From the NCBI GenBank assembly GCA_010015805.1, contig ML978134.1, positions 620,001 to 684,000 on the forward strand: DNA of 64,000 nt, written 5' to 3'. How positions within the stretch are numbered: the first letter of the stretch is position 1; every line of letters starts with the position of its first letter. The DNA comes from Rhizodiscina lignyota. Its lineage: Eukaryota. Below the pieces are notes generated by a model. The model was given only the letters and a program-made list of their open reading frames with translations. It was not told the DNA's origin and searched no databases. The position numbers and the translations under genes were made by a program. This document shows, piece by piece, positions 3,149 through 47,508 of the stretch.

Positions 3149-6100
3149 ATGGAAGATGATTCCTTGCAGGCGAATAACATCAAAGAGCTCGAAAAAGGGC
3201 GTGCTTTCATTGATAAGGTCAGGAAGAAGAATGGCGGGCTCACAAAGGCTCAACGAGAGCGTCTGCAGCGTGAAGACCCAGAGATTCTTGAATCGTTCGA
3301 TAACTTGCGCTCCCAATTGAGTTCATCCACGCAACTGTTAGTGTCATACCATAGACGCCTTGAGTCTATTGTGATTGAGTAAATCTTTTAACTATTCGTA
3401 GCCTCGCCGAACAGCTCTATACAAAACCTACACGCTTCGTCTACGAGCTCATTCAAAATGCGGAGGACAACCGCTACGAGAAGACAAACGAACTCCCATG
3501 GCTTGCCTTTACTCTGAAAGAGGACAAGGTCATCATCGACTCGAACGAAGACGGATTCACAGAAGAAGACATCAGCGCAATATGCGCTATCGCTAAAAGC
3601 ACCAAGTCGACACGCCCGGGCTACATTGGAGAGAAGGGCATTGGTTTCAAATCAGTCTTTAATGTTGCGCAAAAGGTACACGTGCAATCTGGGCCTTACT
3701 CTTTCGCATTCGAATACCGGAAAAGTGACAAGGACGACAACGGGCTAGGCATGGTCACACCCTTGAACGAAGATGCTAACAAGCTTCCTGAGCGTGTACG
3801 AACGAGAACGATCCTCTACCTTCTCGAAAATTATGATCGTGAACAACTTTTGCAAGAGCTTTTGGGTCTACCTGACACTCTGCTGCTATTTCTCACCAAG
3901 CTGAGACGCTTGACTCTTCGCTTCAAGGTTCCAGCGCAGGACATAACGGAGATCCAGTACCTCATGCCTTCTCATGTTGACTCAGATCCCGCAAACATTA
4001 CTCGGATCATCAAAACGACATCTGGAAAGAATAGCTCGGAGGTTGTGAGAAGGTTCTACGTCCAGAGGCACCACGTCAGCAACATGCCCGCGGATCCTGC
4101 TCGTAAAATGGTCCACGAAGCTGAAGTTGTTCTGGGCTTCCCCTTAGACGAGAGCAATACGCCTATCATCGAAGACCAGCACGTCTTTGCCTACCTTCCG
4201 CTGAAGAAGGCTGGTTATACGGTGCGTGCTGCACCATTTGTGCTCCCTGGAGTGATAAACGGGTTATAGATGCTGATCAAAAAAATACTTAGTTCCTCAT
4301 TCAGTCGGACTTCATCACCCAGGCCAACCGAGAAGATCTTGCAGACTCTGCATGGAATAGGCGTTTGATTGGAGAAGTGGCCGAAACATTCTGTAGCGCC
4401 GTGATCGACCCGAAGGGATTCCTCAACCACTCCAGACTGCGACACAGTTGGGTTCGCTTTCTTCCAACTTCGCACGTTGCGGATGAATTTTGGGGACGCC
4501 TGAAAGCCAACATAATAACTATGATGCGCGAAAAGCCCGTGTTCTACTCGGCAGATGAATCGCAGTGGCTGCCATCTTCTTTGCGTATCGTTGGCTCAAA
4601 ATTTCGAGATGAAGATGATGAGCCACTCTTGCGCGATCATAAAGGGCTTGCGGATGCGTACATCTCAAGATCATACGATACAGCCGACGACCTACCTGTG
4701 CTTCAACGTGCTCACCAAAAGCAACCCACTGACACATCGGCTGTCTTCAGGATATACTCCCGCTTGCAGAGATATTCCGACGCCACGGACGTAAGTAGTA
4801 TACGGTAAGTTACCCTGCTCCACTTTCATGCAAGCAGTTTTTGACATCTTTGCCATTAGTACAACCTTTAATGATGATCTCGTGCTGCTTCCTCCAGGCG
4901 ACGGCCGAAGTGTCTGCTGTTGGACAAGTGTCCAACATGTCCTTTGGGATGGCCCCGACTGGTATACTTACATGACCTGTCTCAGATCTTTCAACGAGTA
5001 CCGTTCGTTGCAATCCCTGTTCACTGAGGTCCTAGCCCTGAAAGATGCGTCGATACCTCAGTTTCTGGACTTCTTGTGCGAGATCTCTAGGGGAGGAAGT
5101 AGCTCGCCAAATTTGGACAAGGTCACTTCACTGTACGACAAGCTAGGAGAAGCATCAGGCGAAAATAACGCTTCTTCTCCGGAAGCAGTCCGGTAAGTTT
5201 GTAGCTTCTCAGCCACAGCCACTCGACTCTGACTGTGTCAGACTTCGCGTAGAGCAAGAGAAACTTGTCTACTACCCTGGAAGCAAGACCTGGCATGCTC
5301 CATCATCTTGTATATGGGCGCCGGCCAAGGTTCAACTACCAGGCAAAGTCTCTCTTGCTACAGCATACACGAAACAGCGTCGATTCTTCGAGGATGTGCT
5401 GGAAATACCCAAGCCAAGCGTGCACATGCATATTGCTGCTCTCCAGGACCGAGCACGAACGCATCCCAACAAGGCTGCAATCTTTCATGAGATGCAAAAC
5501 ATCTGCGCATTCAGCCCCTCTGCTGATTTGCTACGGGACAAGCTCGCAGATTGTACATGCTTCCCAATTCGGCGACCATCAGGCAAGATTGATTGGATGG
5601 CCAGCGCCGAAGGGTTCGCCATCGCAGATCGCAAAGAGTACGCTTCGATTTTTAGAGACAAAATCGACATTCTCGATTTCTCACTGGATGAGATACATGC
5701 TGTGCGAGCTGTACTTTCGGCGCTTGGCTTGGAAAGGCAGTTCATGTCAAAAGCAGTCAGAGAAGAGACCAAGGTCAAAGATGGAATGCCGCTTGACAGT
5801 CTTACAGCCGATTTGCGCAGCAAGGCCTACGCCATCTGTCGGTAAGTCTTAGCGTGGACACCCGTTCTCTATTTGTCTGTGCTGAAATATAAAGTTTCGC
5901 TGTCCACCTTGGAAGTAGTACTGCTAGGGCTGCCTTTTCAAAGCTCCAGGCTCTTGAAGTGTTTACAAGCGATGGTATTTCGAAGAGTGTGTCTATCACT
6001 CAAAACGGGCGCAGTCGGTCTGTGCAAGTGTCTACGGCCTACTTTCACGTAGTTCAGACCGAAGACCGCTTCAAGCTCTACGTACCCGAAGAATTGCGAC

Positions 6101-7359: not shown

Positions 7360-7693
7360 GCCACTTCCATACATCGCCATGGATTTAGTCATTTCAGCCA
7401 CTCTTGACCATTGAAGATGATGTCGTGGAACTCATGTAACATTCGAAGAAGCGCTTCTTGTGAAACTCCTTCCAATATATCCTCGAAAATCGTTATTCTT
7501 CGGCCATCTTAATCTCTAGAAGTTGTTATAGTAGCTGATATCAGTCCCGTAACTGATAATCTCGGAAATATCTATAAGAAACGTCTGCGGGGCTTTGGGG
7601 GGGGGTCCGAAACTGGGACGCTAAGTAGAGCCGGAGAGACGCACAGGATGCGCCAAGATATTTTATTATTAGTTAAGTCTTACATAACCATTC

Positions 7694-10149
7694 TTATAGT
7701 TCTTCTCTCTCCTTCTTGGCAGCCATCTTCCGCGCATGGACTTCCCCCTGAATAGCACCAAGCAAGCCAATATGCCTAGCAAGATCCTGAGGCATATAAT
7801 CTGGCAAACCAACGTACGGATTCCCAGACTCCGCTGTTTCTAGAAGTTGTGCTGCAACCTTAGCATTATCGAGTCTTGCACCTTGACCTGTGAGCCACGA
7901 ATGGACACCATGGACGGCGCTTTCGAGAGCCCCGACTACCCATGCATGATGTGGACTCGCAGCCTCACCGACGATAACGAGATCGCCGGATGGTTCGATG
8001 ATGCGCGGCCAGATTGTGCTGAATTGCTGGGGACGGAAGAAGGCGAATGCGCCCATGGTGTGGGGATCGTGTGTCCAATCATGGGAGTAGTGGTCCATGT
8101 AATTGCATTTGATGGTGTTCTCATAGAACTTTTTGATGTCTTCTTCCTTGCCAGTCGTGGTATGCATACGTGCCAGGTCCCAGAGTAATTGATCTATGAG
8201 CCCCATGCGAGCGTCGTCCGCATTTCTTGCCTTGTGAAGATCGGTGTCGAGCTCGGGATGTTTCCAGTCATAGTCGGGCAGACTGGATATCATAGCGCCC
8301 ATACGTTCGGCATCTTGTTGCCAGCTGTACGAGCAGAGTAGGACTGCGTGTGTATCTGATTTATCTTCGATATTGTACGATGGGTAGACGCAAGTGCGAA
8401 TCATCAAGTCAGAATGGCCGAGACCGCCGGACGTGATTGGCGGCTGAAGACTGTGGATCCACCAGGCTGTCTTGAACTTGATTGCCACCTTGGCAGATGG
8501 GCCGTAGCCTAGCGATCGAGTAGCTTGCTTGGTACCGTAGTTCACCCCCGCAGTGGAAAGATCCATTTGTTGAAGACAGGCTAAGGTGGTCGAATTGAAC
8601 AAGACATTGTACTGCTTGGTTTCTACAGTTGGGTCGCCTGAGCCTTGAGAGTTGGAGACAGTCAGATTGATCCCTTGGTCATTAGGACTGCTCGACGTAT
8701 TATAAGTGCTGATTGCTGTACTTTTCATAGCGTATTGAGGCTTCTGGCCCTGGAGCGGTTTTTCCATTCTCTTGGCAAGTTCTTGTGCACCGCCAAGAAC
8801 GCAGTAGAATGGCCATGGGCCCTTCGATGGATCGTATGCGTAATCGAAGTCCAAGCTTTCGAAAACATTTTCGCTATGAGCTTGATCATACCAATCCATA
8901 CCACTGGAGCAATTAGACTATGATAGCTGCATACGCAGTGTGTTCGTTGGCTTACCCATTGAAAGTCTCCATCCATTCCACCTCATCATATGAATAAGGC
9001 CGACCAGGAAGTGGGGGCGGATCAGAAGAGTTGTCGTCTGACGGAGGAGCACTGTAATGGTTAGCCCAATGTGCTTCGCTTTGAATTAGCGGAGGCGGTA
9101 GGATGGTCCACTGATAATGAACAGAACGATCGAGCACGCACCTGATGAGATACTGACGAGTACTCTGCTCGTCATAGTTCATGAGGTAGGACCAAGCGTC
9201 GTCGTCGCCGTTAATGAATTTGTCGCGCAGGTCTTGGACTGACGTCTGGAAAGCACCTCCTGGATTGTTTCCAAGAAGACTATGAATGAGTTTCAGTCTA
9301 TATTCTTGCCTTTCTCACGAAGTCCACTTACTTGGTGCGGATACCAGTCTGGCCATTCTCATCGAAGCTGAACGCATCGAATGTAGGACTCGACTTCGCG
9401 ATGATGTTGTCTAGATCCCCAAACTGAGTGATATCGTTGTAGTGCCAATACTCTGCTGCGTAGGGGTTCTTCTTGTTATCTGGAGCAGGGTGGTAGATGA
9501 TATTGCCTTGGCCGTCTGTCGCTGGCTTCTTCATGTAGTATGGAACAAGATCACCAATTTCTGCATCGGCCAAGTCCTTGATGTTCATGCCAAGCTTGGC
9601 AAAGAGATCGAATATCCTAAACTTGTTAGTCCAGACGTGACAATCAATCCATTTTTAACATACCTCTGCATGACTGGGTTATTTGGAAATCATGGCTCCC
9701 ACATCGTAATATGTGTGAATGTCTTTATCAAGATCAACAATCTCTAGGAAATTGTACGTGTAGAGACGACCGCCGACTCTGCTCGAATCCGCGGCCTCGA
9801 TGATTTCGTAATCGAAGTGGATCTGGCCGGTACATTCCTGGTTTAGATAGTCAAAGATGAGTGCCGTGAACAAACCAGCCGCACCGGCTCCGACAATGCC
9901 GACTTGAACCGTACTCAAGTCGTTCGAAGTACGTCCTGGGAGTTCGAGTTCGAGCGGTTCGTTTGGGCCGATCTTGTGAAGCCCTCCGTCGAAAAAGGAT
10001 GGAAATCTCGGAACTGACCCGTTATCCTGCTTTCGCTCGCTCTCAAACTTGTCAACCCATCTATTGTGGACCACGTTGGCGCTGTTTCTAGCGACCCGCT
10101 TGGCCCACTCATTGCGAACCGATACAAGATTTTTCTGGGGAGTGGCCAT
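7694..10149 (-). pseudogene. Flavin-dependent L-amino-acid/amine oxidase with one frameshift near 9690 (pseudogene or sequence error)
   Basis: GAGAAG Rossmann motif, RVGGRLYT, YYDVGAM, C-terminal GEAASPHHAWVVGALESA. The expected GAMRFP reads ATG-A-TTT-CCA, two bases short. The downstream exons splice in frame. Confidence 0.8.
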
Positions 10150-11202
10150 TTCGGCTTAATAATATCAGATGGTTACAGTTGGTAAAGACGTGTGATAATG
10201 TGTTGGGAAATTATGATTATGGAGATTCAGCCGTCATCAATGTTATATAGCCTTCAAGTTTGAATAGCATGCAAATAGTAAATGCCAAGAGACGTTCAAC
10301 GGTGCAGTCTAGAGATCGGTGAAGGATAAGGTATACTACAACGAGATAGAAAACCTAGGACCTTTTGCCGAGAACCCCATCCAATGAACCTGCCACGATG
10401 GTGATTTTCTCACCACTATGAGAGTCCAGATCTTCAGCTGTTCGGTTAGGTTGTGCCACGAGGCCATCTTTTACTCATTCCCAGCACTGGGATGCAAGGA
10501 CGAGAACTTAAAACACGGGCCGTTCCTGGGGTAGTGACGGGCCGCAATCGCAGAAGGTTGCATGAGCTGAAAACTAGCAACTATCTTAGCATTGTGCGTT
10601 CCGATAAAGCCATTTGCATGAGGAGGGCGGTTCGATGGATGTTCAGCTCAACTTTCAGCTCATGCAAGCACTGTTCTTCACTCAACCAGGGCGCACCTGC
10701 GGAAAGTCCCTATTGTGCGTCGCTAACGACCTCTGCATGTTCTAGATCATTCTGTTGGTGTGTTTGTGATTAGCAGCAAGAATTTGGGTCTGATGCGAAG
10801 GACCTCCCGAGGTTGAGAGGGATGGTGCACGTGAGTCGGCTTGGCATCGACTCGGAACCTTCTCCACAGCGCCACGCCTTGATTTCCATACTGGCATTCC
10901 TTCTCTCACTCTACATTGCAGCTTTTGGCTCTAGACCGCCATGTTATATACACGCACCATGTTCTCTTTCTCTGCATCTTATTGATTGATGAAGCCGAAG
11001 AGTCTCGACCCCGTTATCCTGTATGAGAGAGACAATACGAGAGAGCTTCTTTCTGGATCTCCTGAGAGGATGGTAGCGGCCTCGATACTTTTGGTTTACC
11101 ATTGGCGATATGCAGATATCGGTTGATTTACCGTACATCACGTCCCGCAGACCCTCAAGAATGGCTGTAGATCTGCTCTATGCGCATACTTCCCATTCAC
11201 TT

Positions 11203-11478
11203 TCACCAAACCCGCCGCCTCATTCTCCTTCTGAGTCTTCTGGCTCCACTAGCAACAGGGAAGTGATAAAAGCGCCGACCGTTCTTGTCATTGGGAATTC
11301 TTGCGTTGTCGGCATCGAAGAGATATCCCCAGATTTTCTTGCGAAGCTCCAGAGGCAGCGGGAAGTTTGCAAGATTACTGTGATTTGAGGAGGAAGCGGT
11401 ATCGGAATCATCGCTCTTGAGGAGATCGACGGCCGTGGTAGAAAGCTTGTGGGGTGACCACTGCTTCGAGCCAGCCAT
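11203..11478 (-). pseudogene. Probable gene remnant with an F-box-like motif
   Basis: LPLELRKKIWGYLF resembles fungal F-box-like N-termini. The frame degrades into R-rich sequence and stops, and no clear continuation was found. Confidence 0.35.
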
Positions 11479-11741
11479 AATTACAATTACTGACGGCTTG
11501 AAATTTGGGGGACTTGAAAACGTGAAAAGAACTGGGGTGAGGTGAAAATAAGGTTGAAAGAGAGTTAACTGCCAGGCAGCAAGAGTAGCAGGTCGCAACT
11601 TCCCTTGAGTTGAAGTCCCAGTCGCGCGCCAAGACAGTAAGGCAGTTGCATCGTTAGCACGCCAAGCCTATTGGCTTGAATATTATCGAGCAGTCTATTC
11701 GATGCAAAAATCTCAGTTTTTTCATATTGGAGGCTACTGCA

Positions 11742-13720
11742 TTAAAGCATCCCTCTGCTTAGGAACTTGACTGGCAGGTCGACATATCGAGCCCGACAAA
11801 ATTCCGCCACCTGCTTGCCCAAGCAATCGTATCTGCTCGAGCAGCTTGCACCGCGACTGTAACTGTTAGCTATAATTCCTGTCTTCAAAGGCGCCAGACA
11901 TACTCAAGATGATCATGGAGAAGGAAATGTACTCCGTAAGCGTTTGGAAGCTCGAATCGGTCCTGGCCATGTTAGCAAAGTTTCTAAAGTCAGATACAGG
12001 GGCACGTACAATCTTCTTGCCATTATACTCCTCCGCAAGCAAGTACTTCATCGTCTCGGTGCTGAGCAGGCCCCTCAGCCAGTCCCACTCATCCTTATGC
12101 CGCACCCAGAACCCGACATTGCAGTTGCTGCCCTTGTCTCCGCTCCTCCCATGTACAATCCAGCCCAAAGGTCCACGTACTGTGCGGCCAAACCTTGACA
12201 TATCTACTGATCGAGCAGTCACGTCCTGGCTGGGCTGTTGCTTGGGATATGTCCTTGTGCTGTCCAGCGCCGGAGGTGGTATATCGATTGCTTCTCCACT
12301 TTCGAGGTGGACCTGGTGCTGGATGTCGCTTTGAGGCAAGAGAGTAACCCAATACTCGAATATGGGCTTTGGGAACCCAAGCCTTAAATCCAGATGGCAA
12401 GTCGCGCCTGGGTAACCCTCCATAATCGGATCGACGCAGGGCCTCAAGAACTTCGAGGGAGATAGATCCTTCTGCTCTTTCGCCTGCGCAAATACTCTGA
12501 AGTTCACGGTCGCCTTGTTCTGATTCGTGGGATTGTCAGGGACACTGCCATTCTGCGTGAACTCGAGCATCGTGAACTTGTGGATGTGAGGAGCAAGCAT
12601 CTTCCGCATCTGAGCTTCAATCATGCGGGCTTTCGCATCGATATCAAGGCCTGTAAGGAACCAGTTCATTTCGGCTTGGTAGCCTCCTTTGGCCGTGATA
12701 CCAATCTTGGTCGTCGGAGGAGGCGGAGAGCCTGTGACGCCGCGCAACGCTACTCGATCAGCCCCTAGCTGCTCGAACCAAAGGCCATCCAGGTTCGCGG
12801 TCACATCCTAAGGCTCCTTTATCAGTATGTTTCAAGTATGTAAATGCACGATTTCTTACGCTGTTGAAATACCACGGGCCTTGAATTTCGTATAGCAACT
12901 GGCTTGTACATGTGCCGACAGACACTTCTCCACACTTTCCTTTTTGCTTCGTGATTACAACCTGACCACTTCCATCAATCTCAGCGATTGGATATGCCAT
13001 GTCGTCCCAGCCTTTTGACTCCAAATCTTTGAATCCGGTGTAATTTCCACCAGTAACGTAACTCGAGCACTCAATCAAATGGCCTCCAACAAATGCGTTT
13101 GCGAGCTTATCCAGTTCATGCCTGCCCCAGCCATGCCACCATACTGCGGATGCTATGACTGGACTTGCATCTGAAACGCGCCCGCAAACCACAATATCTG
13201 CTCCTCTTTTGAACGCCTCCACAATACCCAGCCCACCCAGATATGCTTGTGCATATATTGGCTCAAATGTCCAGTCACTCAGGACCTCGCCCGTGCAGAT
13301 ATTCTCGAATTTGGTCCTCCCTTCTTTCACAGCCTTCTGCACGGCAGGGAAGCACTCATCCCCACTGACCCACGCAACACTCAGCTTTAGGCCCTTCTTC
13401 TTGGCCATTTCCCTCACGGCCTCTGCCAATCGCTTCGTGTCACTGGCGCCAGCATTCACGGCGAGCCTGATCTTGTACTTGGCAATGTTCTCTATCGCTG
13501 GTGCAAGGGCTTCGAGGAAGGTAGGTTCGTACGCAGGCACGTCGGGCGAGTCGGTGATGCTACCAGCACGAGCGGTCATGTTGAACTCCGACATCCAGTC
13601 ACCAATTATCACGTCAATTGGGTCGTTTGGAGCGTTAGCTGCAAGCTGAGCCATTGCGAGCCGTCGATCGGTTGCGGCGCCAGAGCAGCCAGCAATCCGT
13701 ATTGGCCTCTTTGCCGCCAT
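11742..13720 (-). CDS. AtuA / DUF1446 acyclic terpene utilisation family protein (4 exons)
   Basis: RIAGCSG..DR, GDWMSE, GADIVVCGRVSDAS, QLLYEIQGPWY, HGRSGDKGSNCNVG. Spliced C-terminus DRFELPN..HFLLHDHLDRGASCSSRYDCLGK..GML*. Confidence 0.92.
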
Positions 13721-14473
13721 ATTTGTAGTATCGATATCAATTAGGCTGCTCAATGTTAATGTAACAATCTGAGATACAATTGATTTTTACACGAGAAAGG
13801 AGCTTCGCCGTCACGGAGGTCGATACAGTGCTTCTGGAGAAACAAAAGAGACGGTGCGGAGATAATATAAGGAACAGAGCACCGAGCTTGAGGCAATGAA
13901 GGTTCCCATCTTGAAAGCTCCAATTGACCCTGGCCGAGGCTATGCAGCTGGATGCGGAGGTTAGGATTTTGGTCTAGAGAGAGCTTTGCGGAATGTCGGC
14001 TAGCAAGCGGGAGGCGGGATTCCGAACGGGGTAAAGGATAGGGGTGGGCTTGGCATAACAACTCCTGAGTTCTTGACAGCTTCACCAGAACGTGGAATGT
14101 CGAATAAAACGCACAGCATTGATATCATATTCTCTTTTCGAAGTCATAGACGTGTTTTTATATTCAAGAAGGATGGAGGAGTGTGGTCCTTGGCATATAT
14201 TACGTTATCTTTGCACATGGTACGGAGTATCAAGTCGCTGATTCCACATTATAATTATACCTATTTGGAAAAATCCTTCCTTACAAATGAGTGGAGATCA
14301 CTACAAAGTTGTAGTGTACATCACTTTCCTCCTCGATTGGCAAACACTGCAATATCGAAATGAATGTCTGATGCCTTCTCGTCGCAACATCAATCCATGC
14401 CGAGCGCTAATCAAAAACTCACCACAAAATGAATCGTACTTTTATTTCTCTTTCATCTCATCCTTGCTTTTTC

Positions 14474-15399
14474 CTAAAAATGTTTTTCATGATGAAACTT
14501 GTCCTTGTCATGATGGCGATGTTCGTCTGCAAATAAATGAGTTAGCTCGGGAAAGATATGAAGATGTGATAGAGATGTCCATTACCATGGTGATCTTCCT
14601 TCTTCCCAAAGTCCTCATTCCGTTTGAAATGTTCCTTGCGGCCGTGGTTACGGTCATGATCGCGGTCATGATCCTTATCGTGGTCATGCTCGTGCTTCTC
14701 TTTCCCAAACTCCTCATTCCTTTTGAAATGTTCCTTACGGCCATGGTCCTTGTTATGGTCCCGATCGTGATCCCGATCGTGGTCGTGGTGGTCCTTGTGC
14801 CTATCAAACGCTTCATCTCTCTTAAAATGATCTTTGTGGCCATGATCATGATCTTTGTGATCTTTGTGATCATCGTGGTGCTTGCCGTCGTGCTCATGCT
14901 TCTCAAAGTCCTCATTTCGCTTAAAGTGATCTTTGTGATCCTTGAACTTCTTCTTATCATCATGGTGCTTTTCTGGGCGGAAGTGATGTTCCTTCTTAAA
15001 ATCCTGCAAATGCTTAGCACCTGAAAAACATGTATGTGCACTCAATTGTATTGGAAGGCAAAAGAGCCGAGACTTACAGGTTCGGCTTCAGCCTCACGCT
15101 TAAAGTGATCCTTATGATCCTTGAATTTCTTCTTATCGTCGTGATGCTTTTCCGGGCGGAAGTGATGTTCTTTCTTAAAATCCTACAAAGACTTAGCACG
15201 TGCACAACTTCTATGTGTGCCAGATTGTATTCAAAGTGGACGATTCGAGACTTACAGGTTCAGCCTCACGCTTGTTCATGTTGATGGCATATTCCACAGC
15301 CCGAGCTTCAACGGCTGCCTGAAGCGCAGCCCCTGGCTCCGGAATGGCAGCTGCTTGAAGCAGCGGAGCGAGGAAGAGTGTAAGAGCAAAGAAACGCAT
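14474..15399 (-). CDS. Secreted KEX2-processed repeat protein (KEP): 239-aa precursor of six His/Asp/Lys-rich peptides
   Basis: Exons 15399-15256, 15182-15078, 15003-14586, 14526-14474, with canonical GT..AG introns and GCTAA branch sites. Signal peptide MRFFALTLFLAPLLQAAA. Six KR sites; EAEP/EAEAEP spacers; every unit ends in HF. Confidence 0.88.
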
Positions 15400-17664
15400 C
15401 TTGGGTGATGTGTGAAGTTGATGAGGAAAGGAGAAATTAACGTCTGGTGCTGGATAAGAGCGAGAAATAAGTAGGTGGAAGTGAATGTGGCTTCTTGGCT
15501 GGCCTGGATTTTAACTCTGGCTTGGACTTGAGAATCCGTCGAGCTTTATATACATGATTCTCTTTGCTGCTCAAGCTTCATCAACAACTTCCTCTGCCGG
15601 CCGCCCACATCCGCATCCTACTAAGCGGGAGCTGAGGACCTCTGCATAATTCTCGACCCCAAGCACAACAGACTTCTGCTCAAGGCCGTGCAACTTTACA
15701 ATTGCGGATCCTCAGCAACTACCATTCGCTACCTCACGGCGAATCCTTGGGTAGATGGTCGTGAAGCAGTAGGATACCTACATCTCCGCCGCCAACTGAC
15801 GTCGGATGATATCACGAACGCTCTTCGGTTTAAAATGCGAAGCTTAGAAGAAAGCTTGATGCTCAAATACTTCCATGTTAGATTATTGCGTGATTGAAGT
15901 CAACTGGCTGTTCCTGTTTACATGTCTTTGTGTGTTGGCGACCAGATGTCGCCGTTTGCTATTGTGAGGTTCTGGGACCCAGGTACTTGTTCTAAGGACT
16001 GGTATGCAACGTTTCCATGACACAGAAAAACTGAGGAGGTGCTTCCAGCCCTATGCATCTATTTCCAATTTTGGAGTTGTCTTGCGGAACTGTATGGCGA
16101 TCGCCACACAATGCTGGCAAGCACGCAAATGCTACTTACCGCAAACGGACGCCCGTAGTATTCCGAATCGAGAGGAGCCCAGGTTTCCCCACAAAACATG
16201 CACCGAATTTGACTCTCATACCCCTGGTTTATACCTCTCTTGTCTACACAGAAAGGAATAAGTCTGATTTTTCATACAGGCTGTGCACGTGTCTCCAATC
16301 CCAATTCATTTCTCCCGCGGTCGATGGGGTCGCCTCCGTGAACAAAATCGAACCCCGTCATTGAACCACTTTCTGCTCAACTACAACTATATTCTAAAAT
16401 GTTATTGCCCTGAGCTGAGGTCTTTCCCATTCCCCGCTGTTCTCCGCAATTTCGATGAGCTTATGTAATTGATCAACCGGTGACGGCGGCGCGGAATCCC
16501 TCGATGCGTAGCCGGAGCAAAGCTCACCAGTCGAAGTGCTCAATGTAGGGCTTCAATATTGAGCTTCATTAATCCTACCTCAGGCTGACTGCATGGCAGT
16601 ACTTGCTCGACAAGCCGGAATACTGGTCCACGTTGACCGCGTCAGCGTTTCAGCACTCGATCGAATTCTGAGATTATTCGCGCAGCGAGGAAATATTTGT
16701 CAACAAATGCTTATGTCCACCAACGGGCAATACCAGGAGCAAACGTAAAGTTGTACAGCCCCCTGTGATAGGCTAGAGGACTTTGGACTTCACAATTCAT
16801 TGGGCAAGTCGAGAATGGGATCAGGATGAACTGAACGAACCGACCTGGCCAGCGTTCCGGTGAAGTAGCGATCACTTGTGGATGTGCAGATGTGCCTACA
16901 TAGTGGATTCGCCAAGCAAGAATTGCCATGCAATAGCTGGACGCAACAACCTCTTGCGGCTTGTCTTGGTCCGAGAGACGGCCGCTTCAACGAGCCTCAG
17001 CTTGTCAGAGAGACCAGCAACTGCAATCCGGGACACCCGAGATTGTTAATACAAGATCCTAGTCAATCTGGAATACAATGTAGCGACATATGCAGAAATC
17101 ATGAGACAAGACTCCAGTACACAAATGGAGTCCCGCTTCCCGCCAGATGCCTAGCACCGTCGATGATCGCCACCGCGGAGCCCAGGCCTTTGCCTGACTT
17201 ATGGACGGCAGTGCAAGAAGAGCAGATCACAGTGTCAGGCTGCTCGCTGCTGTCCGACTAAGCCAGCCATGCGAAGTAGATCTTCCATTTGGCGGCCGCT
17301 ATCCCAAGTTCAGATTCTGGATGGGTGAACGTTTTGCAGTTTTCGATATTTCTTGACCTTTTCGGGGCTCTTATCCGGTAAGCATCGTGAATATCGGGTT
17401 GTCTTTGTCGGACTCTGACCAGTGCATCAAAAGCATTACCGCGATATACCCGTCGAAGCCATAAGGACGAACGAGATCATTCACATGTGCGTTTGGATCT
17501 CTGGTAAGCATTGCGCATATCAGGAATGCCCATATGTCCTCGAGCTCTCTTCATTGGAGGGTGTCCTTTAGCTATGTTGAGCGAGCACTTGATATTCAGC
17601 GATGGGCTCGGCTTGATGTTCAGCGGCGAGCTCGGTATTGTCAGAGACTCAGTGCGAGCCGCTG

Positions 17665-17696
17665 TCCTCCTCCTCCTCCTCCTCCTCTTCTTCCTC
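17665..17696 (+). repeat. (TCC)n microsatellite
   Basis: tcctcctcctcctcctcctcctcttcttcctc. Confidence 0.8.
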
Positions 17697-18005
17697 GTTA
17701 ATAGCAATGCCCTCAACATCACTATTATCAGAGATCTAACCGTGTCGTTCAACGGTAGACTAATGATAATCTCGCTAATCTCACTACCACTATCCATCTT
17801 CGTCTTTGTCGAACGTCCCAGCCTCGATGAGCGGTGTTAATTTAGAAGGATTTGAGGGGCCAATAACAGTCGATAGTACTGTTTCACTGTAGATGGAATA
17901 CTGACAGAATTGAGGGCATACGACGGTCGGGTTGGCTACCACTTGACGCGGAATCGGAGGTCGTAGCTTTCGAGGAGGTCGCAGAGGTCGCAGTCTACCC
18001 AAACC

Positions 18006-20862
18006 TCAGGTGTTCGGATCTATTGATGGTGGCCGACGCAGTTCTCTGTAGACTGCGATAGGTGTGGCAATACACAGCAATACAAGGGAAGCGAATAGGA
18101 GTCGTATTGGTTCCCACTTCGGGGACGGGCCAAATATGCCATCGTACCCAGGCAATCTGAGACTTCGAACAGGCCCAGAAGAATCCTAACATAGCCATTA
18201 GCATATGCTCATCACTTAAGACTAGCACAAAATGAAAGTAACGTACCCAAGTTCCTCCATTGGGGCCTGTCGTCGACAAGCTAGGGGGGCAATCTTCGTC
18301 GCGAGTACCCCAATCGCTCTCTTCTCGGCTCAGCACCAATTCCAGAAGTCCGCCATCTAAGAAGAATGCATGATCGATCCAATTCCGCATGTACGGCTGG
18401 CCATCGAGTGACGCGCTTTGTATATATATCGCTTCGTACTCTGGGTCAAAGTTGACGGTGCGGATCGTGGCTACGTTGCCTGTCTGTGGGTTACGGATGC
18501 TGACTTCGCGGAAGAATGGAGGGAGGATAAGGTAGACGTTCTGTCCGGCATTGGGAAACAAGCCCAGCATGGTCAGAGCCGCAAAGGAGCCCATTGCTCC
18601 GCTATCATCGTTTCCTTTGAGCAAGCGATTAGCAGAATGTCCAACATGAGCTTCAATTCCGTTTGTGGGAAGCGTGGAGTGGGCTTTACCAGGTATTCCC
18701 CCCAACGTATTGTTGAATTGTCTCGGAATATATGTATGTGCGCGTTTCGCCGACAAACCCGGCCGACCTGCATAATGATACAAGAATGGAGTTAGGAAGC
18801 CTTGCTCATCTCCCATTTCCAACAGCCCTGACTCGTGGAAGAAATCGAGACGCTTGATGAAGGAATCACGGCCGCCAAGAGCTTCAATGAGAGAGGCGAT
18901 ATCTCCGGGAACGAAGAAAGTGTATAGCCAGCAGCTGCCCTCGTAGGTTTCGTGGCCGTCCCAAGAAAGAAAGCAACTGTTTGGCTCTAACAATGGTGAA
19001 CACAGCACCGGATCTTGATGTGCCCAGGATCCGTTCGAATGCTTGGGCTGCAAGACACCATCGAAGCCAACACTGTTTCCATTGATCGCTGTACTTTGGT
19101 TGACTTTCAGTAGATTCTTCCAGTTCTCCGACCGCTTCATATATTTCCTGTAGTCTGCTGTTTTATTAAGGCCCTTGGCAATTTGTGCGACAGAGAAGTC
19201 GTTGTAAGCATATTCCACGGTGCGAGAGATACTCCTCGTAAGAGTTCCATATCCCAGGGTGTCATTGTCATGGATTGGAATGTATCCCTTAGTCTTCCAG
19301 CTCACTAACCCCCCACGGCCCTCCCAGCTCCAGCGTTCGGGCTCCTCCTCCGCGTCCTTGAGCACCGCCTCGTAGCCCGCGCTCCAATCTATTCCCTCCT
19401 TTAGACCCTTGACATATGCATCGGCTAGGACCACGTCGGCGTTAGATCCCCCTTGGGTCCACCCTTTGCACAATGACATGCGACAGTCAGGGAGGTAGCC
19501 TTCGTGGGCATAGGTGTCAATCAAGCTTCTAACCATAAGAGTCTGGGCTCGCGGGTCAAGAATGGTTAAGAGCGGGTGCTGAGCGCGGAATGAATCCCAG
19601 ATGCAATAGAATGAATCGTAGTATGGCTCCATGCTGTTCCAGAGTGGATTTTCGCCAGTGTAGTCTTGAGGGCTTAGGAAAGAGCGATAAATGCCACTCC
19701 AAAAGACAGCCTTGAGGTCCCGTGAGACCCCTTGATCATCAGAAACCGAGACCACTTCTAGCTTCTCTCTCCACGCCTGTTGTGCTGTCGCTAACGTGTC
19801 ACCGAAGTCAAAGTTTGGAATTTCTCTCGCCGCATTTCTGCACGCCTGCTCCGTGCCTTTAAAACTTAACCCAACTCGCGCCAGAATTGCATTTTCGCTG
19901 GACGAAAAATCGAATCGAGTGAATGCACCTCGGGGCCTGAATGGATATGAAAACATTCCGCTGCCGTTGTAGAAGCCCAGGGTACCATCAGCAAACGCAC
20001 CCGCGTCGCGGACCGCAGCTCCTGCATAGTCTACGCAGAACGAGAGACGATAGTGCCCTGTACCGAAACTTGGCGTAAAGGTGCCACTTCCGGTGATCCT
20101 GCCCGTCGTTGTATTGTAAGAGAGCTCGGTGTTCCTTTCGGAGCCAGGAAGATCAGTGAGCTCGGTTACAATGACTGGATTGGGATTCCTGGTGGGGCTG
20201 TTCTCAGTTTCCAGAAACGTGAAGCGATAGAGGGCAGTGTGGTTCGACACTGTCATCTCCGCTTTGATTCCGGAATCGAGCGTGATTGCAAAATAGCCAG
20301 GGTAAGCCTCGGCCGAGTCGTCAATCCGCTTGACCGCACGGATATGGATACACTGTTCCAAATCGTCTCCAGGGCAATTGAGTGGAAAGAGGGGGAAATT
20401 CCCCAGTGATGTAGCTCCGCCGGTGCCCGAATCATGCACTAAAATGTTCGTGTAAGTACATTACGGCTTGAGATATACAATGGGGTTTGTACTGTGTGAA
20501 AATCCCTTAATCTCGCTCCGGTCAGAGCCGTAACCGCCTTGGTTTTCTCCTTTTACATCGGCAACAGCTTTTGCCATACCTACACACCAAAGGGATCGAA
20601 CTTAGCAATGGGGATCATCTTTGGAATCAGACATAAGCCGCTCACCGAAGGGTAGGCTTGCGCCAGGGAAGACATGACCTGCCATCAAATCAGAAACTTT
20701 TGACAAGTATGGAGCACAAACGCCGGCGAAGCTGCGGGGATCCGTCTACTTGCCTCCACTAATGGTACCGATCAAAGGATTCACGTAGCTGTAGCCACTC
20801 CCACCACCTAGGACCGCTTGCGGCCCAAAGAGGGTGCAGAGCGAAAAGATGCCCAGCCTCAT
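18006..20862 (-). CDS. Secreted alpha-1,2-mannosidase, glycoside hydrolase family 92
   Basis: Spliced N-terminus YVNPLIGTISGGHVFPGASLPFG. Motifs HDSGTGG..SLGNF, IWDSFR, TQGGSNAD, SRTVEYAYNDF, GNDDSGAM. Last exon 18185-18006 is inferred. Confidence 0.92.
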
Positions 20863-21662
20863 GATACATGGAGACGACCGAATGACGGAACAAGGTTACT
20901 GAAGAAACAACGCGCAAAGAAAGCGCTTGAACGTTGAGACGAAGATTGATGCTTCGTGGCATCGAGGTTATGTAAAGGCTTGGAGCAGGTTCCAGCTACA
21001 CGCATTGGCATGCATGGGGCACCCCACACCCCATGTTTCATTTCCGTTAACGGAATAGTCTCATTAAAAATAGATTTGTTTACTTCATCTGAATCATCTC
21101 AGAAATCTCAATCCTATGAAACCACGAACATGGATTTTGCCAATCTACGGTGTACTATCATATGTACATGACATCCACCAGTTAAACAACATCCTAGGCA
21201 TGAGCGAAAGGCTGTGATCTACTCTATGAGGTAACTACATGTATGATTTTGTACTAGGCACAGCGCGTTTCGGGTCGCAGGTCCCCCTTTTGCAACAAAA
21301 TATATTTTGGCCAGCTGGCTCGAGCTTGATATGGCCAACGCTGCTCATCGGGAGATTTACAGAGATTAGGTGACCACGTGCGAGTGGAACTTCCTTGTCT
21401 CGATTCGACACGTCTTGCACACAAACCATCCTCAACCCTTCTACCAAATTTCGATATTATCAAAATATATTCAGGTAAAGAATACGATGAATTTAACTGA
21501 CTGTTATGTGCTAGAATATAAAGCTGGTTTGAAATTGTGACATGTAGAGCAGCGCTGGCAACGCAGCCCCAACCAGGTCCAGAATAATTACTCGGAAACA
21601 GAATATGGGAACATGCTCGATATAAGAAGCAAAATGCTGTTGCGCAGAGGTGTAAAAATCGC

Positions 21663-22741
21663 TTAGGGAGGACCACCGGCAGGCCCGCTCTTGTCCCAAT
21701 ACCCTGCGCCTTTGTAGCTGCAAGGCCCAACAACACAGTAATACGAGACACCACCAGCGTTGTTCGCATTGGGCGAATACATGACAAAGGGCCCCCCGGT
21801 AGAGTCTTCATTACAAGTAGTGTCGTAATTGTTCTGGACAGTGTATGCGGTGTCTAAGAAACAGGGTCAGACGATCGATTGGCCGATTGCTATGCTCCGA
21901 AGTTCAAACTTACGCGCTGTCCCGTACCAGATGCACACTGTCTCACCAGTGCCTGCAGTGCACTGATACTCATTGCCTGTTTCCCAGGACTCATCGACGG
22001 AGAAGCCACCGCTGATCCACTCGGTCGCAACGAGGTCGGCGCTCCAGCCGACGCTGAAACTTTGAGAGTCTTCTTGGCCAACCGTACATTGGACGGCAGC
22101 GCCACAGCTTATGGGGCCCTAGCTGTGTCAGTTTAGGTCCAAGAGGGAAGGTATGAGTAACTCACGCTAAGCTGCGAGTCCCAGTAGTTCTGATGCGGAT
22201 TGCCATCGGCGATCATGCTGGTACTTTGGAAGACTGTGCACGCTGGAGGGGCGTCTGTGCGTTTTGATTTCTTCGTGACTGGCTCGGACTTTGGAAAGCC
22301 GTAATGCTTCGGGAAGTGGATCGAGCTTTCAGAGAAACAATCCTCGGTGACATTGGTAGGAATGGAAGTGTAAGAAGTGCCCTTCGATGGGATGCTGCAG
22401 ACTACCTTGGCAAAGTCGCCGTTGTACATCTTAGAGCAGACAATACCTCCAGAGTGGTCGGGCTTCGAGTGCACCTTGTAGTTAGAGGAGCCATAAGTAA
22501 CGGTGCCGGATCCGTCCGCGTCAACGTCGAAGGAGATTGGTTCCTTAGCAAAGTTTCCGTCATCGACCTTGTCGCTGCAGGCCTGGCCGAGAAGAACGGT
22601 CTCATCCCCATTCCACACTTGGAGAGACTTGGCTGAGGAGCCCTTCTCATGCCTCCAAATGACAGAGATGTCGCCGTGCGAGGTAGGAGCCGCAGCCGCC
22701 AGCGGCAGCAAGGTGATCAGGAAAGGAGCGAGAGAATACAT
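21663..22741 (-). CDS. Secreted Cys-rich protein of unknown function (about 323 aa, 3 exons) with an internal KR site
   Basis: Signal peptide MYSLAPFLITLLPLAAA. Introns 22165-22119 and 21913-21854 give a continuous frame ending YYCVVGPCSYKGAGYWDKSGPAGGPP*. Confidence 0.85.
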
Positions 22742-24562
22742 GATAAAGGGGAGAAATGAATGTCAGGAAAGAAGAAGAAGTAGTGTTGTGAAGTTGTTTG
22801 GAGATAGGATGAATGAGAGAGAAACGACACATTTATATGTTTCCTGGAGATGGTTTTCATCTTCCAAGATCTTCTCATTACCATAACAAGATGCTATTTT
22901 TACATATCGTCGACAGCAATCTCCACGAGGGGCGGTGCGACGGGTCATTGCAATTGCGATGTGGAGGTCTAGTGTTGATGGTTTGTGCCATAATGGCGTC
23001 CAACACGAGGAGCCGTCTTCACATTCGCGCTTCTGATATGCTTGATTTCTCGAGGCTTAGCAGTAAAGCGGAGCAATTCGAGCGAATCTTATCCGCCATT
23101 CATTTCGGAAACTTTGCGTCGAAACTGTCCATGTAGGGTAGTACACATTGTGGCTGAAAGGCTATGGAAGAGTCCGTGGGAGAGTTCAAGTACGGTAAAG
23201 CTTCACTACTAGGGCCCCATATTAGCATCGGAGGCGTTTCATGCCTTACAATGGAGTCTGCGGGGTCAACCAAATAATGGAAACAGGAAAATATATGTGA
23301 ACGTGAAATCCTGACTGAGAACGAGATATTTGAGAGTGCCTGATGTGGAGCGGGAGCTGAACATGCCAAACCGACTCAGAATAGACCCCAAAGAGAGCAG
23401 CAAAACTACACAAACCATTCCTCCGTAAGGACATGCTCGATCCAGAGAACCGACTCAATGCTGTGGACGTTGGATGACCAGGTTACTCGCGTGCGGCCCA
23501 GAGCAAAAGTTAGGACTCCTAGGTTCGAGCTTGGCATGAAGTTGTTGTGGAGTTGCGCCTCAAAAGCTCGGGACCGAGAGGGCTCTGAGGAGGGTCGGGA
23601 TCAACAGGCACAGTCCTGATTTATCTAGTAGGCCAATCAAGCCCACAAGCCCAGTCGCACGTGGATCTGCGCCTGAATGGGAGGCCTGAGTGCGGCCTGG
23701 CCCAGAGCGTTATACACGATCTTTCCAATGGGAATCCCAGAATATCCATCTCTCATCTCCTCGAATTGGTCAATGTAGTTTAGCGACGTAAAGTACTCTA
23801 AAGCTCCGAAATGAGGTTCTATCTGGAAACACAACTGGGGGCGGAGGTGCACAAAACTTGTCCCTAACGATCAACTTCGGATTATCCGCACGCATAACAT
23901 TCCATCAATCATCACCTGTACAGCCGTCAAAGTAATGCTAGTGTGTTTTCATGGTCAATATCGCTCCGCGAACGGCTTCACAGCAAACGAACTAGCCAAT
24001 CATCGGTGAACCCCCCTGATTATTAGTCGCGCACGAAAATAGAATGTTCCTGCGTCTGGACTCCACTTCCAGAGAGCCTACAGTATCCTAGAGGTCAAGC
24101 TGCTTCAATTTCAGATTGACTTCCGTACCCTCGTTTCAAATGCAAAATCTTCGCATCATCCTCTTCACGAACACACCAGTAGCGGGGACAATTCACGATG
24201 GCAATGAGAATCTACAACGAGCATGATGGCTATCGCTTGATTCGAGTGCCGGGGGTATGAACGCCTTGATTCGCTTTCTTCAAGTGGTATCTGTGTATGT
24301 ACTGTACGCCATTAACCACAGCGCTATGCAGGAAAGCCACGATTTCCCATCTACCGAATTCATATCGACATCAACATCGACAGCACTTGCCGCTTATCGT
24401 ACGTAAGCCAAGCAGAGTGCGGTCTGGCTTCGAAAGAGACGCCGCCCAATAGACCTGGCTAGACAGTCCTGCGGCCGCATCATGAGAGTATTTACAGCCA
24501 TCCAGAACCATCTTTCTTCTCATCTTACCTCTGATGAGTTTCACCTCCTCCTCGTTTCCCCA

Positions 24563-27500
24563 TTATCCTCTGGCCAACAAGCTCCTAATCTTCTCCTGCT
24601 CGGCAGCTGAGAGAGACTGGAAGACATCCTCGAAGCCCGGCTTCGCAGCTTGTTCACGGAAGAACTGAATCAGGTACGCCTGCGTTTCGTCATCACGTTG
24701 ACGCTGGGGCATGTCTTCCGCGAAAGCCATGAGTTCTGATAAAGTTTTAGCATGTTCTCAATCATGCAGAGGAAGGGAAGAAGCATACCAGCTTTCGACA
24801 TGCCCAATCCCAAATCTACTATGGGGTTGGGCTCATCTTCCCAATCACCCTCGTCACTGCCCTCATCTACACTACCGGTGCCGTCTTCTACTCCGCCAGC
24901 GCTACCCGCAGAATTATTGCCGATGCGCCTTGCGCTTCCGCTGGCTGACAGCAACTCTTCGACCAGAACCTTGATGACTTTGATCGGCGCAGGAACAGTT
25001 GTGTACTGGTCCGGATGCTCTCGGGCACGGGACCGAGTCATAATGCGGCCAGTTAGCGAAGGGTTGATGATGAGGTCACCCTTCACCATAACTTGAGCGA
25101 GGCGAGGATCATGTAGGTCGTATAGCTTTGAGAGCGCAATGACGCTGATACTCTATGTTAGCGATAGATCCCTGTTCTGAGACCAACTAGTGAAGAGGGA
25201 GCGGCACTCACTTTTGCCTGATCTCATCGTAACCTGCGAAATTAACTGAATTCTCCAGCCATTTCGACATAACCACCTGCAGCCCGTTCTCTGCGTCAAC
25301 TTGCACCTGAGAGAGAAACTCCACAACTTCGCCGGCATTGTGGAGACTCAACCTCGCAAACACGAGAATCAAGCTCTGGATGAATTGTGCGCTTGTCGCA
25401 CTAGCTAACCGCACTGCCACAGCTTTTAGCAGCTGCAGCAAGAACGGGCCGAGCCTCTCGCTCCCGGCCTTCTCGACGACCTCGGCCGCTAGACCGCCCA
25501 CTTCGGCTGCGGCGTTGTCGTCGACAGTCGGTCCCAGAAGTCGATCGATGATGACGAGCACAATTTCAAGCCCAGCTTTGCCAGACTCGGGCTCGTGCCA
25601 CTCGAAGAGCTGTTGATAGTCGTGCATGAGAATGTTCTTCACGCAGGAGGTACATGATTTCAGAAGCTCCTCGTCCGTCGAATAGAGGAGTTGTCGCTGC
25701 AGTTTCGGCATAACTGTAGCGACGAAGCCTTGTGGAAGAGGTTCGGAGCCATGCGTTGCGAGGATGTCCAAAAGCTCTGCAGCAAGATTGGTTAGGGCAT
25801 TCTCCTCGGTCAGCGTACCAACGTCAAAGGCACCAGTCAGCGACGGAAGGACATGACGGCAGAGCTGCATATAAGCATCTGCCCCCGTCGCGGATAGTGT
25901 GCCAACAACTTCTTCAAATGTTTCATCGACGAGACTGATGAGGTTGAAGTTATTGGCACCATGCCTTGCGAGAGTGAAGAGCATGTCGAGCCCAGTTCCC
26001 TGAAGGCATATCGTTGTGTCAAGCAGGATGGCATCGCGAAGCGTTTCGACAAGAGTTGTCATCAGATCCTCACTCTCGGTAAGCTCTTGTAGGTCTTGCG
26101 CTGCCAAGTAATTTGACAGAGCGGAGATGATAGCATTTTGCATCGGCAGCATGACGTCGGGTGTGAGAGCTTGTGAATAGTACTGCATCGCACGAATACA
26201 GGATACTTGGACGACTTCAGATGAATCATTATTGATAGCTTGAAGGGTAGACTCCACGAACGAAGGCGCCGTCGATCTCATAGCATCAACGGCAGCACGT
26301 GTGAGGCTACCGGCGACCAGAAAACCACGAGCCCGAAGGAATTCCTCTTCTTGCTGCATAGCGTGTCGGATGAATTCCGTGAAGGAGAGAGCTGCTTCAG
26401 GGCTGAAGTTCCGATCCAAGTCTCGGAAGTCAATCAGGAGTTGATTGAGCAGGTACAGCGCGGCCTCCTTTAGCTTCCAGTTCTGTTCTGTCGAATAGAG
26501 CGATGCGGCATACGCCAAAAGCCCATCCACTGTAACTTGAGGAATCCATTCAGCAAGTTTGATGACAAGTTCCCCACAGGCACTTCGCGGTGTGTAGTTG
26601 GCAGTCACACTGGTCTCTTCCGAAATGAAGATGTTGACGTCGATGTTCCACAATCCTTCCTCTTCCGTTGTTATCTGCGCATACGCGACAGACATCCGCA
26701 TAACTTCAATCACCCAGCTAGTCTCACCCGCATTCTTTCCTCGTAGCTGTTGCTCGAGCTCTTTGCGAACTGGTGGGGCGCGCAGAATGGCCTGCATGAA
26801 ATCAAGTTCTTCAAGGACTAAGAAATCGAGCGAATACGGCAGGTTGTCGGCGTCTTCTAATCGACCTTGTCGTTGCTCTACAATGAACATTTGGTGATAT
26901 GCGCCTCGAACAGCGGTCAACTCATCCCAGATCGCGGAAAAGAGAACCGTGCTCTGCGGTGCTAGACTTGATGGTAAAACGGATCGTATTCTCATGAGCA
27001 CTTTGACGACTTGATTCTTCAGTGCGGTCATGCCCCGATAATACACAGTAGCGTCATCCTCTTTGCCATCTTCGGTCTCCGGTGGTGGTTCTGGCAGCCT
27101 TGTCTTGAGAATATTCAAGAAGAATGGTACCCAGTGTGAGAGCGCCTCATCAGTGAATGCCTTGACTGCTGCTTTGTGCACTTCCATTACTTGCTCCAGT
27201 ATGTCAAAGCAACCACGGAACACGTGGACAGCTAATGCTCTCAGCGTAGCCTTCCTCGAATCGTTGGCCGCAATGTCAAAAATTGACTTGATCAGCTCTC
27301 TCGCCACGGCAAAGAATTGTTCGTCGTTGAAGCAGTCATCCACAAGCTCGCCCAGTACCTTCAAGGCACCGTGCAGTTGCGCGTCTGAGCCAGTCTGAAT
27401 GACGTGCAGGACAGCAGGGAAAAGTTCTGGCCACTCCTCAGGGAAGTCTGCATTGGCAATCTTGCTGACAACGTAGCTAGCGGCACGTTTTATCTTCTGC

Positions 27501-47038: not shown

Positions 47039-47508
47039 TTCTCAAATCTCTCACTCCTGCTATACCCTTCCACCTCCCATGCGACCGCGACCTGAGTCGC
47101 AGGAAAGGTGTAGGAGATGTAGCGTGGCTTGATCAACACTTGAGAGTGAATAACACCAGGGAAAGCGGCACTCAGCAGCCCTTCAACTTTTTCTTGCGCA
47201 ACGATACGACGTGGAATACAGACATAAATCGGTGGCCAGTTGAGCTTGATTGTGGAAAGGTTTTCAGAGTTTGGCTGTCAGGGATTATTGTCGTGTGTTT
47301 CACGGAAAGTTGGTGCGCGTATGATCAGAGAGTGTGATGCTCCACATGCGGAGGTTCAAGTGCTCGCGAGTCGCGACGCATCAACAATCCCTGCTCGTGC
47401 CAAGCCTCGGCAAATCATCGGTCCACACACGACAGAGCAAATTCACCAGCACCCTAGAGACATCAACTCGAGCATCGACAACCTCACCCACCCTTCAATA
47501 CCGCCATA

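Follow-up and report, generated by a model that had tools for sequence, protein, structure and literature searches.

How can a locus whose gene escapes a plain listing of open reading frames (ORFs) encode a family of secreted peptides, to which class would its precursor belong and what might the released peptides do? This question is raised by positions 15399-14474 on the minus strand of a 64,000-nucleotide stretch of the fungus Rhizodiscina lignyota (assembly GCA_010015805.1, contig ML978134.1, positions 620,001 to 684,000; hereafter the window, in whose numbering all coordinates are given). Splicing of four exons by their coordinates yields a 239-residue histidine-rich protein, and the locus is a real protein-coding gene that was apparently missed by public annotation. 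We consider it moderately probable that this protein is a genuine Kex2-processed repeat protein (KEP), that it is cut into six peptides and that these act extracellularly through their histidines.

Gene model and precursor architecture

The four-exon model on the minus strand, proposed in a first-pass annotation of this DNA, was reproduced exactly. Its exons and introns, the parts of the encoded precursor and the flanking signals are as follows.

15399-15256, 15182-15078, 15003-14586 and 14526-14474, minus strand: exons 1 to 4, with the stop codon TAG at 14476-14474
15255-15183, 15077-15004 and 14585-14527, minus strand: introns 1 to 3, of 73, 74 and 59 nt
15346..15399, minus strand: start codon and 18-residue signal peptide with a basic N-terminus, a hydrophobic core and AAA before the predicted cut
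15268..15345, minus strand: 24-residue pro-region, closed by the first KR (a site of the Kex2 type)
15096..15267, minus strand: unit 1, class A; EAEP ends exon 1, then intron 1, then a 27-residue core and KR in exon 2
14917..15095, minus strand: unit 2, class A; EAEAEP ends exon 2, then intron 2, then an identical 27-residue core and KR opening exon 3
14818..14916, minus strand: unit 3, class B; His/Asp-rich core of 31 residues ending in HF, then KR
14719..14817, minus strand: unit 4, class B; core of 31 residues ending in HF, then KR
14620..14718, minus strand: unit 5, class B; core of 31 residues ending in HF, then KR
14474..14619, minus strand: unit 6, class B; 28 residues, with intron 3 inside and HF abutting the stop codon TAG
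15552-15545, minus strand: TATA box TATATAAA, which precedes the start codon by about 146 nt
14446-14441, minus strand: AATAAA polyadenylation-type signal, beginning 28 nt past the stop codon

The three introns are of the canonical fungal type, with the donors GTAAGT, GTAAGT and GTAATG, the branch sites CTAAG, CTAAG and CTAAC, and acceptors that all read YAG. Retention of intron 1 or of intron 2 leads to an in-frame stop, and reading through intron 3, a phase 1 intron which splits unit 6, puts unrelated residues in place of the last histidine-rich unit. The interval from the TATA box TATATAAA to the start codon is free of ATG, with pyrimidine-rich tracts coming after the box. Codon usage of the precursor shows no strong bias when compared with the neighbouring GH92 gene. 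A single PacC-type GCCAAG is present at -100 within 1 kb upstream of the start codon; one such hexamer is expected by chance and no inference is drawn from it. Neither CAAGGT nor the copper-response element TTTGCKCR occurs in the same 1 kb.

As the first-pass annotation had pointed out, a plain ORF listing overlooks this model, the longest frames listed at the locus being a 181-residue stop-to-stop piece and a 260-residue antisense frame. The latter is a hydrophobic frame on the plus strand (14242-15024) and, being the longest open frame at the locus, it could be proposed as the real gene. However, no Pfam family was found for it, it is what one would expect from His/Asp/Lys codons seen in the mirror, and all 9 differences between the duplicated units described below are non-synonymous in this frame and silent in the minus frame. 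We therefore consider it almost certain that the plus-strand frame is not the gene. The frame 14242..15024 (plus strand) is an artefact of CAY, GAY and AAR codons read backwards, and it could mislead ORF-based annotation.

The signal peptide was called by inspection, and the mean Kyte-Doolittle hydropathy of its residues 3-14 is 2.39. KR dipeptides are located at residues 43, 76, 111, 144, 177 and 210 of the precursor. After removal of EAEP or EAEAEP the units are 27, 27, 31, 31, 31 and 28 residues long, and HF ends all six. The earlier description of six units of 27-31 residues, each ended by HF and with the last HF right at the stop codon, is thereby confirmed, and the architecture of a secreted KEP, in which the signal peptide is followed by a pro-region with KR at its end and then by six repeats set off by KR, is supported in silico.

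KR is confined to the six unit boundaries; KK, KKK and RK are found within the units, and RR is absent. The number of KR dipeptides by itself is unremarkable, as 20,000 composition-matched shuffles contain 3.2 +/- 1.5 of them compared to the 6 observed. What is non-random is the placement of KR at every unit boundary and nowhere else, together with the synonymous-only divergence of a duplicated unit. In all 4 aligned junctions within exon 3 the residues H, F, K and R do not vary, nor do the E at +2 and the F at +4 that follow them, and the junction is the best-conserved part of segments which overall are 44-46% identical to the first.

This arrangement bears on the possibility that the precursor is secreted uncut, as one intact, histidine-rich, disordered protein that serves in metal buffering or as an antioxidant, like Dld1 of Serendipita indica, or as a dehydrin-like protectant. 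KR would then merely be part of the repeat, as the number of KR in the shuffles already allows, and intact secreted histidine-rich fungal proteins with metal roles do exist (PMC9610748 and bioRxiv 10.1101/2025.11.04.686606, both in excerpt). On the other hand, an uncut protein does not account for KR dipeptides that are invariant, restricted to boundaries and preceded by a conserved HF, for a last unit that stops at HF, or for the X-A/X-P spacers after two of the KR sites, all of which are hallmarks of released peptides. Secretion of the intact protein is accordingly judged unlikely.

Selection on the encoded peptide

Units 1 and 2 share 29 codons (the 27-residue core plus KR) which encode identical residues. 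Between the two units 9 of the 29 third positions differ, as compared to 0 of the 58 first and second positions, and all of these differences are synonymous. Introns 1 and 2 are homologous, each falling just where the E-P spacer gives way to the peptide core; 55 of their 76 aligned columns (72%) are identical and 21 differ, with the first 10 bases identical. Units 1 and 2 are a tandem duplicate of an intron-plus-exon module (15004-15255 region).

Comparison of the three kinds of sites by Fisher tests separates first and second positions from third positions (p = 2e-5) and from the duplicated introns (p = 3e-6), and finds no difference between third positions and introns (p = 0.81). Silent sites have thus drifted about as far as the introns while the peptide has remained unchanged, and therefore the encoded peptide has been held by selection. 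Gene conversion is ruled out, because it would have erased the silent differences too. Purifying selection on the encoded class A peptide is strongly supported by these observations. Among units 3-5 the ratio of non-synonymous to synonymous differences (pN/pS) is 0.25-0.40.

The same evidence speaks to the suspicion that the locus is non-functional, a decaying or never-expressed repeat array that splices in silico by chance. The suspicion draws on the lack of an annotated protein and of detected relatives. Purifying selection on the duplicated unit, a frame that stays intact across three introns and the presence of a signal peptide, a TATA box and a polyadenylation signal all speak against it, and we consider a non-functional array very improbable.

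Class membership of the precursor

The grammar of KEPs combines KR sites for Kex2, the action of Kex1 and X-A/X-P dipeptides for Ste13 (PMC6339444, in excerpt). According to the definition of Le Marquer et al. 2019, cuts at KR or RR should yield no fewer than 4 fragments, 3 or more of them similar, with the repeats making up at least 15% of the protein (PMC6339444), and a SignalP-positive endoplasmic reticulum (ER) signal peptide was demanded in both KEP surveys (PMC6339444, PMC7329392). In the present precursor a signal peptide is seen by inspection, no transmembrane segment lies past it and the pro-region is without a long hydrophobic run. The six KR sites give 7 fragments, 6 of which align as repeats, and the units cover residues 45-239, which amounts to 195 of 239 residues (82%). 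On these sequence features the precursor is a KEP as defined in silico by Le Marquer et al. and by Umemura. It shares with other KEPs an ER signal peptide, compact and similar units separated by KR, some X-A/X-P dipeptides and the lack of any other domain; it differs from them in its cargo, which consists of 27-31-residue His/Asp/Lys polyampholytes of two classes.

The Kex2/Kex1/Ste13 grammar invoked by the first-pass annotation consequently stands as far as the KR architecture is concerned, whereas Ste13-type X-A/X-P dipeptides precede only 2 of the 6 units (units 1 and 2). Its suggestion of an undescribed peptide system was overstated, as the precursor is one of the KEPs, a class already described, and among 7,878 catalogued KEPs there are already 2,560 singletons without homologues (KEP surveys PMC6339444/PMC7329392). 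What is new is an orphan, apparently unannotated KEP with a long histidine-rich cargo of two classes, and not a new kind of system. Five motifs of the precursor are absent from the searched supplement files of PMC7329392 and six from those of PMC6339444, in both of which cells of more than 400 characters are shortened and full sequences are possibly not included. Rhizodiscina lignyota is not listed in the searched supplement files of either survey, and the gene would be invisible to protein-based KEP surveys because it is apparently unannotated. In the literature, as judged largely from the listing, no paper was found that pairs Kex2-processed repeat with histidine-rich, nor one describing such a secreted fungal precursor.

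A close architectural parallel is offered by the yeast alpha-factor precursor MFalpha1 and the ascomycete alpha-pheromone precursors, which likewise have a signal peptide, a pro-region, KR with E-A-type spacers, a stop codon that closes the last repeat, and the Kex2/Kex1/Ste13 logic of processing. However, alpha-pheromones range from 9 to 24 residues (PMC6339444, in excerpt), whereas the present peptides have 27-31 residues, are devoid of Trp and Cys, and carry Ste13 dipeptides on only 2 of 6 units. Pfam gave no family, MF_alpha included, for exon 3 or for the exon 1 frame, and the earlier statement that this is not an alpha-pheromone holds. The length of the peptides does not speak against ordinary release by Kex2 and Kex1, since Ece1p of Candida albicans yields a linear peptide of 31 residues in just this way (PMC5784256, in excerpt).

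Another reading is that the peptides are pheromone-like or hormone-like signals which act via a receptor. The amino acids of class A, fully conserved (0/58) while the silent sites diverged by 31%, are in favour of signalling, and so is an architecture with Ste13 signatures, which is that of alpha-factor precursors. Against it stand the length of the peptides (27-31 compared to 9-24 residues), the lack of Trp, Cys, a Pro-rich motif and an MF_alpha match, an extreme charge and low complexity that are unusual for receptor ligands, and the lack of a seven-transmembrane (7TM) gene among the Pfam matches in the window. Taken together, a signalling role seems distinctly unlikely.

Dikaritins, as peptides that are made by the ribosome and modified after translation (RiPPs), would be expected to have a DUF3328 (UstYa) gene no more than about 10 kb distant, the average being a distance of 3 genes. 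Pfam found no DUF3328 in 61 ORFs of at least 70 residues at 7,513-25,152, nor in 40 further ORFs across the window (39 long frames plus P0001; at least 150 residues). Frames of at least 70 residues at 3.4-26.9 kb number 110, of which 61 were scanned in the ORF set of 7.5-25.2 kb; the other 49 either fall beyond the limits of 7.5-25.2 kb or coincide, wholly or in part, with the AtuA, amine oxidase and GH92 genes, whose main frames were scanned separately. For ORFs of at least 70 residues at 7.5-25.2 kb and of at least 150 residues window-wide, the first-pass statement that no DUF3328 gene is nearby is hence supported. The units are also without Tyr and Trp; Tyr is the cross-linked residue in ustiloxin, phomopsin and asperipin, and the cores of ustiloxin and phomopsin have 4 residues (PMC7329392).

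It is conceivable that the precursor belongs to a RiPP whose cores are modified or cyclised in dikaritin-like fashion by enzymes encoded elsewhere in the genome. The KEP architecture is shared by ustiloxin-type precursors, and DUF3328 genes usually go along with the KEP types G-3 and G-8, which have di-histidine motifs (PMC7329392). G-3 and G-8 are not comparable to the present precursor because they are DUF3328-associated types. With no DUF3328 in the scanned ORFs, no Tyr or Trp and cores far longer than 4 residues, we regard a modified product as quite improbable. The protein falls outside both the alpha-pheromone precursors and the DUF3328-linked precursors of RiPPs.

Composition and predicted properties of the peptides

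Residues 45-239 are composed of ten residue types (H 45, D 38, K 38, E 23, F 17, R 15, G 6, N 5, A 4 and P 4), which corresponds to 23% His and a grand average of hydropathy (GRAVY) of -2.79. Cys, Ser, Thr, Tyr, Trp and N-glycosylation sequons are all absent from this region. Charges and isoelectric points (pI) were calculated with pKa values chosen for this analysis. Class A, present in two identical 27-residue copies after removal of E-A and E-P, has a pI of about 9.7 and a net charge of about +2.5 at pH 7.4. Class B comprises four related peptides of 28-31 residues with a calculated pI of 6.3-6.7, whose net charge, about -2 to -5 at pH 7.4, would become about +4 to +6 once the pH has fallen to 5. 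In the class B peptides (K/R)-D-H triads abound, as do HxH, HxxH and HxxxH spacings. No amino-terminal copper- and nickel-binding (ATCUN) type site is present, His occurring at position 3 in 0 peptides.

AlphaFold2 prediction for exon 3, run as a single sequence without an alignment, returned a mean predicted local distance difference test (pLDDT) score of 54.2, a predicted template modelling (pTM) score of 0.17 and no secondary structure, an output that is weakly suggestive of, and compatible with, a disordered exon 3 product.

Proposed processing and function

From the logic of the sequence, the following route of processing can be proposed. The 18-residue signal peptide would direct the 239-residue precursor into the ER and be removed by signal peptidase. 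In the Golgi the Kex2 endoprotease would cut after each of the six KR, and the Kex1 carboxypeptidase would trim the trailing K and R so that His-Phe is left at the end of every one of the six peptides; the last unit would need no trimming, because the stop codon occupies the position of KR. A Ste13-type dipeptidyl aminopeptidase would act on units 1 and 2 alone, stripping them of E-A and E-P. The expected products are two identical cationic class A peptides of 27 residues and four class B peptides of 28-31 residues, all of them linear and disordered.

Such a route has precedents among fungi. Linear peptides derived from KEPs have been seen by mass spectrometry in four mushroom species (PMC9769878, in excerpt), and in Candida albicans Kex2, which cuts after KR sites, and then Kex1 release the 31-residue linear peptide candidalysin from the 271-residue precursor Ece1p (PMC5784256, in excerpt). 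Ece1p resembles the present protein in being a secreted polyprotein of similar size (271 compared to 239 residues) that gives a linear peptide of about 31 residues, Kex2/Kex1 cutting being a prediction in our case. It differs in that no search found any sequence similarity between the two. The peptides of Ece1p are, moreover, dissimilar to one another.

With regard to function, the peptides may serve as extracellular His/carboxylate ligands for Zn, Cu or Ni, and/or as histatin-type, pH-switched polycations. We infer such a metal-binding or histatin-like role from composition and by analogy with three systems. Histatin 5 of human saliva is a cationic, histidine-rich peptide of 24 residues which in water takes the form of a random coil and carries sites for Cu/Ni and for Zn (PMC7409060). 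This short, linear peptide is set free from a larger precursor by proteolytic cleavage and is an antifungal that binds Cu, Ni and Zn, and class A is similar to it in size and charge. Histatin 5 is, however, an animal protein without homology to ours and with another type of precursor, and the present peptides have no ATCUN site and include a class B that is acidic to neutral at pH 7.4. Neither Pfam, nor the PDB (E <= 10), nor a library of 1.84 billion proteins gave a match to histatin or statherin, and on sequence grounds the likeness to histatin is compositional only.

Within fungi, the C-terminal His tail of PcoAA14A, an AA14 lytic polysaccharide monooxygenase (LPMO), binds copper and is antifungal (bioRxiv 10.1101/2025.11.04.686606, in excerpt), and roles in metal ion homeostasis are listed for Dld1 of Serendipita indica (PMC9610748, in excerpt). 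Both cases represent extracellular histidine-based metal binding in fungi. Dld1 is an intact protein and the PcoAA14A tail is part of an enzyme, however; neither of them is delimited by KR, and no relationship in sequence to the precursor was found for either.

Several points weigh against the reading of the precursor as a source of six defined peptides that act through their histidines. The N-termini of class B are uncertain, because Ste13-type dipeptides are present on only 2 of 6 units, and the internal KK, KKK and RK sites could be cut further, or not at all. A generic chelator is disfavoured by the lack of an ATCUN-type site in any peptide, and class A, unchanged in every residue since an old duplication, hints at a sequence-specific partner instead. 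At the acidic pH expected on wood the histidines would be protonated and poor Zn binders. No metal-related gene was found among the neighbours and no metal-related promoter motif in the 1 kb upstream. A membrane-active peptide is difficult to reconcile with the very low hydrophobic content, Phe being the sole hydrophobic residue. Finally, neither protein sets nor metagenome contigs provided an orthologue that could show conservation of KR and HF across species.

After weighing these points, a real KEP whose peptides act extracellularly through their histidines is still the reading that we hold with moderate confidence. A more specific proposal, which we advance tentatively and by analogy as rather less probable than its opposite, is that the two classes form a two-component cocktail which combines extracellular metal capture or withholding with a pH-gated antimicrobial, in effect a ribosomal "metallophore".

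Relatives, annotation status and host lineage

The GH92 frame next to the precursor (17998-20460, minus strand) matches an NCBI protein of Rhizodiscina lignyota at 705 of 731 aligned positions, with one 25-residue gap and one mismatch at the first aligned residue, and the next-best protein is at most 66% identical. As this neighbouring protein is in the public set and the precursor is not, the precursor is apparently unannotated.

Searches for relatives returned nothing. None of 731 candidates from a word-indexed search with exon 3 (proteins of 76-244 residues) reached E <= 0.001, and none of 147 candidates from that with exon 1 (proteins of 85-2000 residues) reached E <= 0.01. No match was found by phmmer for exon 3 among 1,835,955,588 representatives, nor for the precursor in Pfam, the PDB (E <= 10) or the ESM Atlas. 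Two pattern scans of metagenome contigs gave 167 and 479 pattern matches, of which 0 were confirmed by tblastn.

The sensitivity of phmmer was controlled at the same database size with variants carrying substitutions only. The protein itself was found at E = 2e-77, as were 30 of 30 variants in which 20-40% of residues were substituted. At 50% substitution the limit of E <= 0.001 was reached by 5 of 5 uniform variants and by 3 of the 5 that kept the composition; at 60% the uniform variants again gave 5 of 5, those with composition kept gave 0 of 5, and shuffles gave 0 of 20. The blank phmmer result taken together with this control means that the library holds no annotated relative above about 50% identity. 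It is possible that unannotated orthologues are present in other fungi.

Rhizodiscina lignyota is the type species of Rhizodiscinaceae in the Aulographales, an order that is saprobic on leaves and wood (PMC7082219, in excerpt). Its lineage is an isolated and poorly sampled one within the Dothideomycetes, and the orphan status of the gene is only mildly informative because of this isolation. No second histidine-rich or KR-repeat frame is present elsewhere in the window.

Genomic neighbourhood

The genes closest to the precursor are listed below.

11866-13786, minus strand: AtuA-like gene (acyclic terpene utilisation family), directly downstream of the precursor
7694-8917, minus strand: flavin amine oxidase (Pfam)
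17995-20460, minus strand: GH92 (Pfam)

The AtuA-like gene is represented by the overlapping frames 12758-13786 and 11866-12807, which indicates an intron or a frame change near 12760-12807. The public GH92 model skips 25 residues of the open frame, suggesting an in-frame intron, and has extra N- and C-terminal exons outside the frame. A short (GAG)n-type trinucleotide run is located at about 17660-17700, in the gene-poor interval of 2.6 kb between the precursor and GH92. Further out in the window are genes for Importin-9, HORMA, GNAT and GH35 proteins. A HET-domain gene (1099-2553, minus strand) adjoins a sacsin/HATPase-like frame (3379-4269, plus strand), which is typical fungal incompatibility or NOD-like receptor (NLR)-like content. 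An open frame of 1368 residues (42935-47041, minus strand) has no Pfam family at E <= 0.001, and the same applies to the long frames 48583-49845 (minus strand), 51988-52965 (plus strand) and 52966-54192 (plus strand).

Implications

KEPs are widespread in fungi and their functions are largely unknown, according to excerpts of PMC9769878. The case described here illustrates that short multi-exon genes for peptide precursors can be missing from public protein sets, and protein-based KEP surveys would then undercount them. It also demonstrates that selection on an orphan gene can be established without any orthologue, from the synonymous-only divergence of a duplicated intron-plus-exon module. 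The six predicted peptides could be synthesised directly for metal-binding and pH-dependent antimicrobial tests, because they are short, linear and without Cys or glycosylation sites, and the hypothesis they give rise to is unusually concrete and cheap. If the peptides do act as a ribosomal metallophore, this would be a function that has so far been described for no KEP.

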